A program made the translations under genes and the position numbers. A stretch of 32,000 nt of DNA from an uncultured Alphaproteobacteria bacterium (GTDB taxonomy: Bacteria; Pseudomonadota; Alphaproteobacteria; Rs-D84; CACZYB01): contig CAKQHZ010000001.1 of the NCBI GenBank assembly GCA_934246625.1, positions 120,001 to 152,000 of the forward strand. The letters are read 5' to 3'. Below the pieces are notes generated by a model. That model did no database searches and was not told where the DNA came from. It saw only the letters and a program-made list of their open reading frames with translations. Shown here piece after piece: positions 5,175 to 20,844 of this stretch (position 1 is the stretch's first letter; each line of letters starts with the position of its first letter).

Positions 5175-7007
5175 ATGGAAATAAGAAATATTGCTATTAT
5201 AGCTCACGTTGACCATGGTAAAACAACTTTGGTTGACGCAATGTTAAGACAAAGCGGAACTTTCCGTGATAATGAAAAAGTTGCTGAACGTGTTATGGAT
5301 AGTGGAGATATCGAACGTGAACGTGGTATTACCATTCTTGCAAAATGCACTTCACTTGAATATGACGGATACAGAATCAATATTGTTGACACACCAGGGC
5401 ATGCTGACTTTGGTGGTGAAGTTGAACGAATCCTTAATATGGTTGATGGTGTTGTTTTGTTGGTTGATAGCTCTGAAGGTCCTCTTCCACAAACAAAATT
5501 CGTTCTTGGAAAGGCTTTGGGACTTGGCCTTAAACCTATTGTTGTTATCAATAAAATTGATAGAGCTGATGCAAGACCAGATGAAGTTTTAAACGAAATA
5601 TTTGACTTGTTTGATAAAATGGGTGCTACTGATGAACAACTTGATTTCCCTACTCTTTATGCAGTTGGTCGTGAAGGTTGGGCAGTTGAAAATCTTGAAG
5701 ATATAAATAAACCAAACAAGGATTTAAAACCTTTGTTCGATTTGATTATTAAGCATGTGCCTGCTCCTCAAGTTGATGTAAATAAGCCATTTTCTATGCT
5801 TGCAACAACTTTGTCAGGTGATAACTTCTTGGGTCGTATCTTGACAGGTAAAATTATGTCAGGTAAAGCAAAAATGAATATGCCAGTAAAGGCAATTTCT
5901 CTTGATGGAAAAACTATTGAACAAGCAAAAATTACCAAAATACTTGCTTTCCGTGGTATCAATAGAACTCCATTAGAAGAAGCAGAAGCTGGTGATATTG
6001 TTTCAATCGCTGGATTTTCAAAGGCAACTGTAGGTGAAACACTTTGTGATTTAAGTGTTAATGAAGCTATTCATGCTCAACCTATTGACCCACCTACTTT
6101 GACAATGACTTTCTCTGTTAATACTTCTCCTCTTGCTGGTAAAGATGGCGACAGAGCAAAACTTACATCTCGTGTTATTTGGGACAGACTTCAAAAAGAA
6201 GCAGAATCAAATATCGCACTTAGAATTGAAAGAAGTGAAACAAACGAATCATTCGAAGTTTCTGGTCGTGGCGAATTGCAACTTGGTATTTTGATTGAAG
6301 AAATGAGACGTGAAGGTTTTGAATTTTCTGTTTCTCGCCCTCGTGTTGTATTCAAAGAAGAAAACGGCGTAAAGATGGAACCATTTGAAGATGTTATCGT
6401 TGATGTTGATGAAGAATTTTCTGGTGTAGTTGTTGAAAAACTTTCAAAACGTAAAGGCGTTATGACTGAAATGAAACCAAGTGGTTCAAACAAAGTTAGA
6501 TTGGTTTTCAAGGTGCCTTCTCGTGGTATGATTGGATATTTATCTGAGTTCAGAACTGATACTCGTGGAACTGGTATTCTTAATCGTGTATTCAATGATT
6601 ATGAACCTTATGCTGGTCCAATTGAAAGATATAGAAATGGTGTGCTTGTTTCTATGGAAAATGGTCCAACAACTGCTTACTCTTTATATGCATTGGAAGC
6701 AAGAGGTCAACTTTTCGTTGGTGCAGGTGTTGAAGTTTATTCAGGTATGATTATTGGTGAACACGCAAAAGAAAATGATTTGGAAGTGAACCCAGTAAAG
6801 GGAAAGGCTTTGACAAATATGCGTGCTGCTGGTCATGATGAAGCAACTATATTGTCTCCTGCAAGATATATGACCTTGGAAGAAATGCTTTCATATATCG
6901 CAGATGATGAACTTCTTGAAATTACTCCTAAAAATATACGTATGAGAAAGAAAGAGCTTGATGCTTCTATACGTCATAAAAATTTGGGACGAAAAAAAGA
7001 AATGTAA
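5175..7007 (+). CDS. typA: translational GTPase TypA/BipA
   Basis: AHVDHGKTTL, DTPGH and NKID G-motifs, EF-G-like domain order, about 610 aa. The TTG at 5112 in the ORF track is an upstream extension. The ATG at 5175 gives the canonical N-terminus MEIRNIAIIAHVDHGKT. Confidence 0.92.
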   Translation: MEIRNIAIIAHVDHGKTTLVDAMLRQSGTFRDNEKVAERVMDSGDIERERGITILAKCTSLEYDGYRINIVDTPGHADFGGEVERILNMVDGVVLLVDSSEGPLPQTKFVLGKALGLGLKPIVVINKIDRADARPDEVLNEIFDLFDKMGATDEQLDFPTLYAVGREGWAVENLEDINKPNKDLKPLFDLIIKHVPAPQVDVNKPFSMLATTLSGDNFLGRILTGKIMSGKAKMNMPVKAISLDGKTIEQAKITKILAFRGINRTPLEEAEAGDIVSIAGFSKATVGETLCDLSVNEAIHAQPIDPPTLTMTFSVNTSPLAGKDGDRAKLTSRVIWDRLQKEAESNIALRIERSETNESFEVSGRGELQLGILIEEMRREGFEFSVSRPRVVFKEENGVKMEPFEDVIVDVDEEFSGVVVEKLSKRKGVMTEMKPSGSNKVRLVFKVPSRGMIGYLSEFRTDTRGTGILNRVFNDYEPYAGPIERYRNGVLVSMENGPTTAYSLYALEARGQLFVGAGVEVYSGMIIGEHAKENDLEVNPVKGKALTNMRAAGHDEATILSPARYMTLEEMLSYIADDELLEITPKNIRMRKKELDASIRHKNLGRKKEM

Positions 7008-9125: not shown

Positions 9126-9608
9126 ATGATCGAAATCACAAATATACATTTAACAGACGAAGCCTTTGATAAAATATTAAAAAATCTTCAAAGTGGTGGT
9201 ATATTTATTTCAAATAAAACGGAAAATACCGAACCAAAATTGGAAAATGATAATCCAACAACCGATGAACTTCAATCAAGGGTAAGGTCTTTGTACGAAC
9301 GTTTTTTGAAGTTTAAGGAAGATGAAAAACAACTTGGTATAAAAAAAATAGAATTTGAATACCCAAATTTTGAAAACCAAATCAAACAATTATTTTCTCC
9401 ACAACCTAATTACAAAACATTGGTTACAGATGCAGAAAATACAATGGCAAAACTTGAAAACTCAATTGCATTTGTAAAATCTGCAACGGATACAAAAACA
9501 AATGTTGATAATGCGAAAATGAGGAAACATCTTTTGGATGTAATTTCAAAACTTGATTCAAATATGAAACAACAGTTAATCGCAGATTTAAAACAATTAC
9601 AAAAATAA
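9126..9608 (+). CDS. hypothetical protein (160 aa)
   Basis: ORF with an AGGAG RBS, 12 nt after the map stop. No recognisable motif. Confidence 0.5.
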   Translation: MIEITNIHLTDEAFDKILKNLQSGGIFISNKTENTEPKLENDNPTTDELQSRVRSLYERFLKFKEDEKQLGIKKIEFEYPNFENQIKQLFSPQPNYKTLVTDAENTMAKLENSIAFVKSATDTKTNVDNAKMRKHLLDVISKLDSNMKQQLIADLKQLQK

Positions 9609-9635: not shown

Positions 9636-10556
9636 ATGACAATATATGTTATGGGACATAAAAATCCAGATACAGATACAATAGTTGCAAGTATTGCTTG
9701 TGCTGAACTTTTAAAGGCTCGTGGACTTGATGTAAAGGCTTGCAAACAAGGCGAACTTAATCCAGAATCTCAATTCGTGATTGATACTTTCAAACTTAAT
9801 GACCTTGAAATGATTGAAAGTGTTGAAGGCAAAGATATTGCGATTGTTGATACAACTGAACCTACACAACTTCCTGATGATATTGAAAAAGCAAACATTA
9901 TGTTTGTTGCAGACCACCACAAACTTAGTGGCATTAAAACTACTACTCCTCTTGAAATGTATGTGCAACCTGTGGGTTCTGCTTGCACTGTGCTTTCAAA
10001 TATTTTTGAGTTTGAAGGAGCAAAAATTCCATCTGGTGTGGCTGGTGCAATGATGTGTGCTATTTTATCAGACACCGTTTTATTCAAATCTCCAACAACA
10101 ACAGAATGGGATAAAAAGGCAGTTGAAAAATTAGCAAAGATTGCAGGCATAGAAAAACCTTTGGAACTTGGACTTGAAATGTTAAAGGTTAAATCATCTA
10201 TTGAAAATGATAGTGCAAATGATTTAATCAATCGAGATTTCAAAGAATTTAATATTAAAGGTAAAAAATTTGGTATCGGTCAAATTGAACTTATTGATGG
10301 TTCTATGGCAAAAACAAAAAAGCCTCTTATCCTTGAAGAAATGAAAAAAATTCAACAAGAAAAGGGTTTCAATTCTATCCTTATTTTGATTACAGATATT
10401 ATGAAGGAAGGTTCTGAAATGTTGGTTGTTTCTGATGATATAGAATCAATCGAAAAAGTATTTGGAATCAAATGTGATGAAGAACATTGTGCTTGGATTG
10501 ATGGAATGATGAGCCGAAAGAAACAAGTTATTCCACCACTTGAAACAAAACTTTAA
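9636..10556 (+). CDS. ppaC: manganese-dependent inorganic pyrophosphatase (family II, DHH)
   Basis: N-terminal GHKNPDTDT, VDTTEP, DHHKL, and length of about 306 aa are typical of family II PPases. Confidence 0.85.
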   Translation: MTIYVMGHKNPDTDTIVASIACAELLKARGLDVKACKQGELNPESQFVIDTFKLNDLEMIESVEGKDIAIVDTTEPTQLPDDIEKANIMFVADHHKLSGIKTTTPLEMYVQPVGSACTVLSNIFEFEGAKIPSGVAGAMMCAILSDTVLFKSPTTTEWDKKAVEKLAKIAGIEKPLELGLEMLKVKSSIENDSANDLINRDFKEFNIKGKKFGIGQIELIDGSMAKTKKPLILEEMKKIQQEKGFNSILILITDIMKEGSEMLVVSDDIESIEKVFGIKCDEEHCAWIDGMMSRKKQVIPPLETKL

Positions 10557-10566
10557 TCAAAAAAAG

Positions 10567-10593
10567 AAAACTCACCATTTGGTGAGTTTTTTT
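10567..10593 (+). terminator. intrinsic terminator after ppaC
   Basis: Hairpin aaaactcacc-attt-ggtgagtttt extended by a T run. Confidence 0.8.
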
Positions 10594-10609
10594 ATACATA
10601 AAAAATTTC

Positions 10610-10638
10610 TTGATAATTATTCAAAAAGAATATATCAT
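10610..10638 (+). promoter_or_regulatory. sigma70-like promoter candidate (TTGATA-17 nt-TATCAT)
   Basis: The hexamers and 17-nt spacer were read directly. The site lies just after the ppaC terminator and upstream of the structured block. AT-rich DNA produces such matches by chance. Confidence 0.35.
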
Positions 10639-10670
10639 AAAATTATGTTTAGGAATTTTTCTTAAACTAG

Positions 10671-10848
10671 CGTCCATAAATGGATGTGGGACTGTCGAAA
10701 GTCTTTTATACAGCTAGTGCATCGATGCACTTTAAGGTCATATCCCTGTTGTCGGGGAACCCTTGACGTATGTCCAGAGGATATGTTCGCATATTCTTAA
10801 AGGTCATGTGGAATTATCTAGCTGTATATAATTTTCGAACTTCCCCGT
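10671..10848 (+). ncRNA. candidate structured RNA (6S-like architecture or cis-regulatory leader), class unknown
   Basis: Locally G+C-enriched block inside the largest non-coding gap. It has nested helices, including a perfect 11-bp long-range pairing 10707-10717 with 10818-10828. G-U pairs favour the plus strand. See the findings. Confidence 0.45.
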
Positions 10849-10915
10849 CATTTATCTGATGCGAATGGGAAAAATAAATCTTGCAATTTATTGTAAGGTT
10901 AACAGGGGAAAGACT

Positions 10916-11326
10916 ATGAAAAAATCGATAATTTTATCGTGTGTTTTTTGCACGATTTTATCCGTAAGTAATCATACCTATGCAGGAAATTCGTCTGCTT
11001 TATCCGAAGTATTATCAAAATATTGTGTGCCAAAAGATAGCTCTATTTGTGGGTCAAAAAATATTGCCACATACAATACTCGTTTAAGTGCGTGTGAATG
11101 TGCTGTATTAGGTATGTATTACGATGTCAAAGAACGTAAATGTTTAAATTGTCCGATTGGCACTGTTGCATTTACAAAAACATCTACCAAATGTTCGAAT
11201 ATTCAATGTAAACCTGGATATGTTGGCAAACTTATTACAAATAATTGTCCAGCAGGATATATTAAAAAGGAAATTACAAAGAATAGCTGTCCTCGTGGCA
11301 CAACATTATGGAGCTTTCCAAAATAA
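10916..11326 (+). CDS. secreted cysteine-rich repeat protein (C-x2-C-P-x-G-T / C-[KP]-x-G-Y type repeats)
   Basis: The ATG at 10916 has a ggggaaag RBS and gives a signal peptide MKKSIILSCVFCTILSVSNHTYA. The mature part has 10 Cys, in motifs CLNCPIGT, CKPGY, CPAGY and CPRGT. The ORF-track start at 10859 is unlikely. Confidence 0.6.
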   Translation: MKKSIILSCVFCTILSVSNHTYAGNSSALSEVLSKYCVPKDSSICGSKNIATYNTRLSACECAVLGMYYDVKERKCLNCPIGTVAFTKTSTKCSNIQCKPGYVGKLITNNCPAGYIKKEITKNSCPRGTTLWSFPK

Positions 11327-11459
11327 TTGATTTATGGGGGAAAATTTTAACATAGTTTTATTTTCTCCCTCCCTTAAAATAACAAGCTAAAAACTTGTAG
11401 CGGTTCATTATGATGGTAAGTGAACCAAAAGTTAACACCATCAAAAAAGGAGTAAAAAT

Positions 11460-12320
11460 ATGGGAAATAAAAAGGCTATGAACCTTGCTTTTGCTATTGT
11501 AGGGGCAAGTTTATTTAATGTAGGCGAAGTTTCTGCGCAAACATTTTTCCAATGTATTGCTTGTGAAGCAGGAACATACGAATCAAATGGAAATTGTGCA
11601 AAATGCCCAAGTGGAACATTTTCTTCTGTAAGTGGAGCAAGCTCATCTTTGGTATGTCAACCTTGTCAAGCAGGACATTATTGTCCAGAAGGTGCACAAA
11701 TTGAATATTCTTGTCCAAAGGGCACCTATTCAGATAAAAACTATGCAACATCTTGTAAAAAATGTTCTAAAGGTTATTACAATGATAAAGTAGGTCAAAC
11801 AGCATGTCAACAATGCTTTGGAAATTACTATTCTAATGCAGAAGGAAGTGAAAGATGTCAATATTGGGATCCTAATGATTTTGGAATATTTTATGGAAAA
11901 GAAGATGGAAAGTATATAAGAGATAATAAAGGCTCAATTATTTATTCTGCTGAAATTCCTGAAGTAGATTGTGCAGGAATCTTTTGTAGAGATAAATACG
12001 ATAGTGGAATATGGTGCAAAAACGACTTTTTTGAGATAGACCCAGCATCACATGTAAGAAAAGTTTGTGGATTATCAATAGGTGGAGGTTCAGCTTGTAA
12101 GGTTAGGGCTGATAATAGTACTGCTGGTGGTTGTTGTCATAATATAGAATATGTAGTTGCAACTGAAGATACTCAAATACATATTGATGATGGATTTGCT
12201 TCACATTTATATGGATATAAAAAAATATGGGGAGATAGAGGAACATATTATATATATCCAGATGGACATATTGAAAAAAGAGATAAATATGCTGATGAAG
12301 CAAACGCAAATGCAAAATAA
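11460..12320 (+). CDS. secreted cysteine-rich protein with ephrin-receptor-like / GCC2_GCC3-type repeats
   Basis: AGGAG RBS. The signal peptide ends ...GEVSA. There are six consecutive C-x2-C-x2-G-x-[YF]-like units (CIACEAGTY, CAKCPSGTF, CQPCQAGHY, CPKGTY, CKKCSKGYY, CQQCFGNYY) and 20 Cys in total. Confidence 0.65.
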   Translation: MGNKKAMNLAFAIVGASLFNVGEVSAQTFFQCIACEAGTYESNGNCAKCPSGTFSSVSGASSSLVCQPCQAGHYCPEGAQIEYSCPKGTYSDKNYATSCKKCSKGYYNDKVGQTACQQCFGNYYSNAEGSERCQYWDPNDFGIFYGKEDGKYIRDNKGSIIYSAEIPEVDCAGIFCRDKYDSGIWCKNDFFEIDPASHVRKVCGLSIGGGSACKVRADNSTAGGCCHNIEYVVATEDTQIHIDDGFASHLYGYKKIWGDRGTYYIYPDGHIEKRDKYADEANANAK

Positions 12321-13520: not shown

Positions 13521-14642
<1,122 letters not shown>

Positions 14643-20767: not shown

Positions 20768-20844
20768 TGGTGAACCCGGGCGGAATTGAACCGCCGACCT
20801 ACAGCTTAGGAGGCTGTCGCTCTATCCTGCTGAGCTACGAGTTC
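20768..20844 (-). tRNA. tRNA-Arg (anticodon CCU), CCA encoded
   Basis: Folded by hand: acceptor gaactcg/cgggttc, D stem gctc/gagc, anticodon stem acagc/gctgt with loop ctCCTaa, T arm ggcgg-ttcaatt-ccgcc, discriminator A, and CCA. Confidence 0.93.

Follow-up and report, generated by a model that had tools for sequence, protein, structure and literature searches.

The intergenic region that precedes two genes for secreted cysteine-rich proteins in the genome of an uncultured alphaproteobacterium contains a structured RNA element. This element probably serves as the 5′ leader of the Cys-rich operon mRNA, and probably represents an uncatalogued family of cis-regulatory RNAs which hide the Shine-Dalgarno (SD) sequence. 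The operon mRNA would start at the leader's own promoter and run through the leader into the genes. All positions refer to the 32,000-nucleotide stretch of DNA that was analyzed, which is referred to here as the window, and the coordinates of the individual features are listed in Table 1.

The element lies in an intergenic gap of 359 nt (10557-10915), between ppaC (9636-10556) and the start codon at 10916. The initial annotation had delimited this gap correctly, and its description of a G+C-rich block within it also holds (G+C content of 0.39-0.43 across 10650-10850 vs 0.18-0.25 immediately 5′ of the block). The plus strand of the region 10665-10850 folds with an energy of -65.6 kcal/mol (z = -5.83), which was equaled by none of 200 shuffled sequences; the minus strand folds more weakly (z = -3.5). 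The structured block (10670-10848, plus strand) is real, and is beyond chance expectation. G-U pairs are frequent across its helices and one of them is invariant (11 of 11 sequences), which fixes the plus strand, the one already favored in the initial annotation. In two strains the gap is identical save for a single substitution, G10672A, which converts a G-U pair of hairpin H0 into A-U.

The PpaC protein was also found on human-gut metagenome contigs (up to 715 kb in length), and the nearest GTDB relatives, as judged from ppaC, are metagenome-assembled genomes of uncultured Alphaproteobacteria from gut and rumen. A gene for a 160-aa protein lacking a significant Pfam match (9126-9608) is situated directly 5′ of ppaC, and is conserved there in the relatives L003-L005. 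The window also contains a gene encoding a CcrM-like N6_N4 DNA methyltransferase with a RAMA domain (13560-14642), in keeping with its origin from an alphaproteobacterium, and one tRNA gene on the minus strand (20771-20844; Rfam, 69 bits).

The terminator hairpin that follows ppaC (10567-10597), as read from its nucleotides, probably sets this gene apart from the leader transcript. In cmscan, the plus strand of this hairpin was aligned to the terminator parts of several models, and the motif scan reports it on the minus strand; the structure is palindromic, with an A-run on its 5′ side and a U-run on its 3′ side, and could terminate transcription from either direction. The sigma-70-like promoter noticed in the initial annotation has counterparts at the same spacing in the homologues. 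A matching site at the same distance from hairpin H-1 was reported by the scan in L007, L022 (twice) and L017, and was read by eye in the remaining homologues. Transcription is predicted to start approximately 7-9 nt 5′ of H-1.

The distinct loci at which a homologue of the structured block was detected number at least 13, and belong to uncultured Alphaproteobacteria of gut and rumen. When a covariance model was prepared from four close sequences, it found the distant leaders, each at the expected place (E = 6e-13 to 9e-3; E = 0.08 for L021). Each of the 13 leaders is in sense orientation, directly 5′ of a gene start and 3′ of a promoter-like site, and 12 of them are followed by the Cys-rich two-gene operon, which supports one reading offered in the initial annotation, namely that the secreted Cys-rich genes further downstream have a new cis-regulatory leader. 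The exception is the leader of L007, which precedes a different secreted protein (459 aa, without Cys-rich repeats). A pattern scan of the JGI metagenomes yielded a single chance match, inside a transposase gene, and two pattern scans of viral contigs yielded nothing or a chance match that was rejected by the covariance model.

Two of six relatives identified through ppaC carry a related RNA, namely L008 (nhmmer, E = 1e-20) and L007, the latter being a shorter variant that was spotted by eye (z = -5.6); folding of the homologues gave z = -6.25 and -5.64. Both have a secreted-protein gene downstream of ppaC, unlike the other four relatives, in which a different gene comes right after ppaC, without the RNA. 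Since the RNA is present only where a secreted-protein gene follows ppaC, it is tied to the downstream operon and not to ppaC. On the contigs encoding the small Cys-rich protein, the RNA is found directly 5′ of that gene at many unrelated sites, e.g. after fabZ, recR, a T4SS gene or a glycosyltransferase gene. The genome GCA_944390685.1 contains at least three copies (L008, L012 and L013), and L022 carries two tandem operons with one leader apiece.

The presence of several copies per genome, and of a perfect 10-11-bp inverted repeat, would also suit a MITE or another mobile element, in which the 11-bp pairing would constitute a terminal inverted repeat, as the initial annotation had considered. 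This explanation is extremely improbable: all copies are oriented and spaced alike with respect to the promoter and the gene start, no target-site duplications were seen, and the sequence of the putative terminal repeat (helix P3) differs in each homologue yet remains complementary. The covariance model, run with its filters off, finds one copy in the 32-kb window.

Some loci depart from the general plan. In L015 (4880-5000), the same promoter, H-1 and H0 precede a member of the protein family, and the domain of approximately 180 nt is missing; the sequence at the junction is suggestive of a deletion between the 3′ arms of H0 and H3, which resemble each other (GAUAYG(U)GGGA). The retention of the promoter, H-1 and H0 in the absence of the domain indicates that the latter is an optional module of regulatory type. 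The short variant of L007 (5015-5236) lacks hpA, and its hpC is only a GNRA-capped hairpin. In L018 (3880-3990), an insertion of approximately 100 nt, bounded by short direct repeats (GGGGGUAG, GGACCUUC), separates a first SD-like sequence, AAAGGGGGUAG, from the real SD; the close relative L019 has no such insertion.

Table 1. Position and support of the features identified in the leader region and the downstream operon (window coordinates).
Feature	Position	Strand	Sequence	Support or comment
ppaC terminator hairpin	10567-10597	+	CUCACC-AUUU-GGUGAG, then U7	Read from sequence
Sigma-70-like promoter	10610-10638	+	TTGATA-17-TATCAT	Motif scan
H-1, 5′-terminal hairpin	10648-10666	+	UUUAGGAA/UUCUUAAA	7 pairs, all compensatory, 100% paired (12 sequences)
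H0 hairpin	10670-10676/10681-10687	+	GCGUCCA/UGGAUGU	Compensatory changes; strain variant G10672A
S1 hairpin	10689-10693/10700-10704	+	GGACU/AGUCU	Covaries; loop UCGAA (10695-10699) is the 5′ strand of P2
P2	10695-10699/10834-10838	+	UCGAA/UUCGA	5 pairs, all compensatory, 100% paired
P3, 5′ strand	10707-10716	+	UAUACAGCUA	7 counted pairs, all compensatory
P3, 3′ strand	10819-10828	+	UAGCUGUAUA	Pairs with 10707-10716
hpA hairpin	10717-10730	+	GUGCA-UCGA-UGCAC	Variable region, 0-75 nt in relatives
hpB hairpin	10744-10748/10753-10757	+	CCCUG/CGGGG	Outer 3 pairs invariant, inner pairs covary
hpC, stem C1	10764-10767/10803-10806	+	UGAC/GUCA	Supported by homologues
hpC, asymmetric internal loop	10768-10776/10799-10802	+	GUAUGUCCA/AAAG	Conserved
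hpC, stem C2	10777-10785/10790-10798	+		Supported by homologues
HX (J4/J5)	10812-10816/10829-10833	+	AAUUA/UAAUU	Covariation at all 5 pairs, 100% paired
Helix T (hpB 3′ arm and J3/tail)	10753-10759/10841-10847	+	CGGGGAA/UUCCCCG	7-10 bp in every member
C-rich tail	10839-10849	+	ACUUCCCCGUC	Conserved; candidate anti-SD element
Platform hairpin H3 (weak)	~10848-10875	+		Counterparts in L009 and L023; U-run after H3 in subgroup 2
Platform hairpin H4	10877-10886/10891-10900	+		Counterparts in L009 and L023
SD and start codon	10905-10910; 10916-10918	+	GGGGAA; ATG	Equivalent gene start called in L001 and L002
Putative regulated operon (two genes)	10916-12320	+		Gene calls, Pfam, homologues
Small secreted Cys-rich protein	10916-11326	+		Member of a 41-cluster family of hypothetical proteins
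Larger Ephrin_rec_like Cys-rich protein	11460-12320	+		Pfam, 41 bits

The initial annotation had recommended the collection of homologues and an analysis of covariation. The helices were delimited by hand in the 13 distinct leaders, and the order of the strands was checked in each of them. In our own count, 54 pair columns have 99.7% of their cells paired and 48 of these columns are compensatory (66% paired in shuffled controls). The helices were then trimmed to common lengths and linked by constant linkers before pairs were counted again. This analysis revealed 42 pairs in eight helices, 99.6% paired across the leaders, and 37 of the 42 have changed on both sides; none of 500 shuffles reaches this result, and controls in which the strands were slid are 26-44% paired. 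The choice of helices by hand inflates these percentages, a bias which the covariance-model matches and RNAalifold runs on MAFFT alignments left without curation (21 and 18 pairs with compensatory changes) lessen and do not remove. Because the 13 leaders all belong to a single narrow lineage, independent substitution events are fewer than the cell counts suggest.

These data point to a domain of about 170 nt (140-230 nt in the family) in which a pseudoknot formed by S1 and P2 is stacked on P3, with P3 closing a junction that bears hpA, hpB and hpC; the C-rich tail follows at once. The loop of S1 and the 3′ strand of P2 constitute an H-type pseudoknot, the spacers of which measure 1-2 nt and 0-1 nt in 13 of 13 sequences. 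The sequence of P3 is different in every subgroup and its complementarity is kept, and the C-run and G-run of hpB are invariant among the homologues. The palindromic hpA of the window (GTGCATCGATGCAC, a perfect palindrome of 14 nt) contains a ClaI-type ATCGAT site and is not conserved in the relatives. When a third segment conserved as a partner for the strands of P3 was sought, this AU-rich sequence gave only noise. The internal loop of hpC was compared by eye with the consensus sequences of the K-turn and the 11-nt tetraloop receptor, and fits neither.

Several helices that the initial annotation had drawn by hand are recovered in this architecture. Its hairpin at 10671-10686 corresponds to H0, its tcgaaa/tttcga pairing to P2 (tcgaa/ttcga, 5 bp) and its 11-bp pairing (10707-10717/10818-10828) to P3 (10-11 bp), all three with compensatory changes in the homologues, and its small hairpin at 10717-10730 is hpA, though this is a variable region in the relatives. 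The pairing of ggga with tccc, proposed as part of the closing helix (P1), is possible, but it competes with the covarying local hairpin S1. The long terminal hairpin (10736-10748/10775-10788) is not conserved, as it cannot form in L008, L011 or the whole of subgroup 2; nor is its cap (10751-10767), in place of which the homologues support hpB and the two-part hpC. Given stems C1 and C2, most of the 29 nt described as unpaired (10789-10817) are paired. The repeated motif ttaa(a)ggtcat does exist, but its first copy is not conserved.

The leaders appear to maintain a second fold, which excludes the first one. Three observations lead to this proposal: HX covaries, helix T occurs in every member, and RNAalifold, unaided, chooses the fold composed of T, hpC and HX for subgroup 2 (the P1-P2-P3 fold was returned, likewise unaided, for subgroup 1). 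Variants of the HX pairing in the relatives include AAUCA/UGAUU, GGUUU/AAACU and GUCAU/AUGAC. The loop of the HX hairpin is the 3′ strand of P3, and this strand is separated from J5 by only 0-1 nt, so that HX and the full P3 cannot coexist as a classical pseudoknot. Helix T is 85% paired, with modest covariation; the core of T, like P1, consists of invariant G-C pairs, which give covariation nothing to test. The existence of a T + HX fold would suggest that the domain is built to rearrange, and would add an extra state.

The conserved tail (ACUNCCCC) lies directly 3′ of P2 and approximately 60 nt 5′ of the SD. It is complementary to three strands: (i) the G-rich SD, (ii) the 5′ arm of S1 and (iii) the 3′ arm of hpB. 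When the platform was folded alone (from the tail to the start codon), the tail:SD pairing was present in the minimum free energy (MFE) structure of 10 of 12 leaders, with a pairing probability of 0.6-1.0 in nine. In the window, this pairing joins UUCCCC (10841-10846) to GGGGAA (10905-10910), and the bases flanking the core differ between leaders in a compensating manner (UU/AA, AC/GU, CUG/UAG). When full leaders were folded into nested MFE structures, the tail paired with the 5′ G-run of S1 (P1) in 10 of 12 cases, and the SD is free or weakly paired in several members when P1 forms. In constrained folding, the tail is predicted to hold the SD when the pseudoknot fold is imposed; with T imposed, the 5′ C-run of hpB is freed and is predicted to capture the SD in its place. 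The energy gaps between these folds amount to a few kcal/mol, which is within the error of the energy model.

On the basis of these predictions, the tail would act as an anti-SD element. With S1 formed, as in the pseudoknot fold, the tail would be free to pair with the G-rich SD, and translation would be off; with the 5′ G-run of S1 placed on the tail (P1), both C-runs would be occupied and the SD left free, and translation would be on. In the simplest model, the 5′ G-run of S1 would toggle between the 3′ arm of S1 and the tail, and a ligand or factor that stabilizes one of the folds would set expression. The SD is predicted to be paired in both the pseudoknot and the T folds, and thus the on/off assignment rests on the P1 fold, of invariant G-C pairs, which is the only one predicted to leave the SD free. 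A simple model with the T fold as the "on" state is not supported, as the freed 5′ C-run of hpB is predicted to capture the SD. Attenuation by a leader peptide was rejected: no conserved ORF was found among the leaders, and a Cys-containing ORF of 38 aa (10684-10800) has no counterpart in L008.

Most of the expression platforms contain no clear terminator, and the stretch from the domain to the SD is free of terminators in the window, as it is in the remaining members of subgroup 1. L007 carries a strong intrinsic terminator (5185-5204) between its domain and the SD, and U-runs follow H3 in L022a, L017 and L018, in view of which the family seems to use both kinds of platform, translational and terminator. 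The terminator situated right after the domain of L007 and the U-runs, together with the leader's own promoter, might also belong to an independent trans-acting small RNA that merely lies 5′ of the operon. We consider this very unlikely, as there is no terminator at this place in the window and the rest of subgroup 1, no second promoter is evident ahead of the gene, and the association with a single operon family across unrelated sites is stricter than a free-standing sRNA would show.

A constitutive structural 5′ UTR, which protects a highly expressed mRNA from 5′ decay or tunes translation without any switching, is an explanation that we regard as unlikely. 5′-terminal stem-loops stabilize bacterial mRNAs, and only a few nt lie between H-1 and the predicted 5′ end; moreover, H-1 and H0 are kept in L015 even without the domain, and the leader has no known ligand. 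However, plain protection needs no pseudoknotted domain of 140-230 nt, and it leaves unexplained the two mutually exclusive covarying folds, the conserved anti-SD tail and the terminator placed between domain and gene in L007.

The operon putatively controlled by the leader consists of genes for a small protein (approximately 125-140 aa) and an Ephrin_rec_like protein (200-340 aa); these sizes cover the window, L008 and L011-L023. The best sequence match of the larger protein in PDB is the mastigoneme protein Mst1 of Chlamydomonas (E = 1.6e-16). All 41 clusters of the small protein's family originate from uncultured Alphaproteobacteria of gut or rumen, the genomes of which hold several copies each, at unrelated sites. 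Gene callers have placed ORFs of 54-65 aa over the leader (L008, 5048-5230; L022, 2836-3000; L023, 2727-2924), and the Cys-rich gene of the window is over-extended at its N terminus (10859-10915; 153 aa in P0001 vs 136 aa from the ATG at 10916). These ORF calls and the extension are probably spurious.

The downstream genes offer no metabolic hint, a point against the preferred explanation. Their products are secreted proteins, not enzymes or transporters, which would be in keeping with the binding of a protein or a small RNA to the leader in place of a metabolite, e.g. one coordinating or mutually excluding the paralogous surface-protein operons. A genome contains several such operons, and the leader copies that precede them have diverged from one another; the conserved asymmetric internal loop of hpC and the junctions would suit a protein-binding site. 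On the other hand, no conserved regulator gene accompanies the operons, whose neighborhoods all differ, and we judge this proposal quite unlikely; it overlaps the preferred explanation of an SD-hiding leader, with the trigger alone being different.

A scan against Rfam 15, also recommended in the initial annotation, detected no family that matches the leader, 6S RNA and riboswitches included: at the gathering threshold, the window and 10 homologous loci gave only tRNAs, and in E-value mode (E ≤ 10 in the window) the three leaders examined gave nothing relevant. The initial annotation had noted a resemblance to 6S RNA, which imitates open promoter DNA, binds the sigma-70 holoenzyme of RNA polymerase and templates pRNA. 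The leader does resemble 6S RNA (RF00013) in its length (approximately 180 nt), in having a promoter to itself and in its long closing helix. The two differ in fold, copy number, genomic context and Rfam score, RF00013 being unmatched in the window, even in E-value mode, and in the 10 homologous loci. The rod of 6S RNA (closing stem, central bubble and terminal stem) was rejected, since the conserved fold is a pseudoknot and a P3-closed junction with three hairpins. A housekeeping gene present once or twice and independent of its neighbors was likewise rejected, as there are at least three diverged copies in one genome and the RNA is absent from ppaC loci without the operon. Given, in addition, that the copies are tied to one operon and that the domain is deleted in L015, we attach virtually no credence to this identification.

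The SD-hiding leader proposed here was also compared with several known regulatory systems. The SAM-II and preQ1-II aptamers comprise 35-80 nt, and the SD or its neighbor is inside the H-type pseudoknot. The leader resembles these translational riboswitches in being located in a 5′ UTR, in using a 3′ segment near the ribosome-binding region for the pseudoknot, and in the competition for the strand beside the SD. It differs from them in the larger, multi-branch domain (140-230 nt) that the pseudoknot closes and in the candidate sequestering element, a separate C-rich tail 60 nt 5′ of the SD. The cobalamin, Mn2+ (yybP-ykoY) and Mg2+ (M-box) riboswitches, large junction RNAs with a long-range tertiary closure, are similar in size, in having a junction closed by a long helix, and in including members with translational or terminator platforms, but their signature sequences are absent here (e.g. 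there is no B12 box), there is no Rfam match, and the order of the helices and the pseudoknot topology are different.

The alternating complementarity of successive segments is reminiscent of the four-segment attenuators of the trp type. Two such series can be recognized in the leader: (i) the 5′ G-run of S1, the 3′ arm of S1, the tail and the SD, and (ii) the 5′ arm of hpB, the 3′ arm of hpB, the tail and the SD. Unlike in trp-type attenuators, there is no conserved leader peptide, and in most members control seems to be exerted through the SD and not through a terminator. Numerous orphan leader motifs of a similar kind already exist. No described class known to us unites a pseudoknot-closed junction with a distinct anti-SD tail and an alternative fold that covaries. 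It is possible, and we propose it only tentatively, that the leader constitutes a new riboswitch class, i.e. a metabolite- or ion-sensing aptamer with a pseudoknot-closed junction and at least two maintained folds, dedicated to multi-copy Cys-rich secreted proteins of the ephrin-receptor type.

A large comparative screen of intergenic regions of the human microbiome has produced thousands of unnamed candidates (Fremin and Bhatt 2021, PMC8040213), which are of the same object type and come from the same habitat as the leader described here. Signature strings of the leader gave no match in the literature searched or in part of the supplement of that study; the family may be one of its unnamed candidates.

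The leader family is limited to one narrow uncultured lineage. If confirmed, it would constitute a well-defined structured RNA family, with approximately 13 diverse members, a pseudoknot and competing folds, from a gut lineage without cultured representatives and with almost no known regulatory RNAs. The natural variants, namely L015 (without the domain), L007 (with a terminator) and L022 (with tandem duplicates), are ready controls for experiments. For annotation, the finding means that several gene calls overlapping these leaders are probably spurious. The leader would also provide a first handle on the control of multi-copy secreted Cys-rich proteins with eukaryote-like repeats, which are plausible surface or host-interaction factors.
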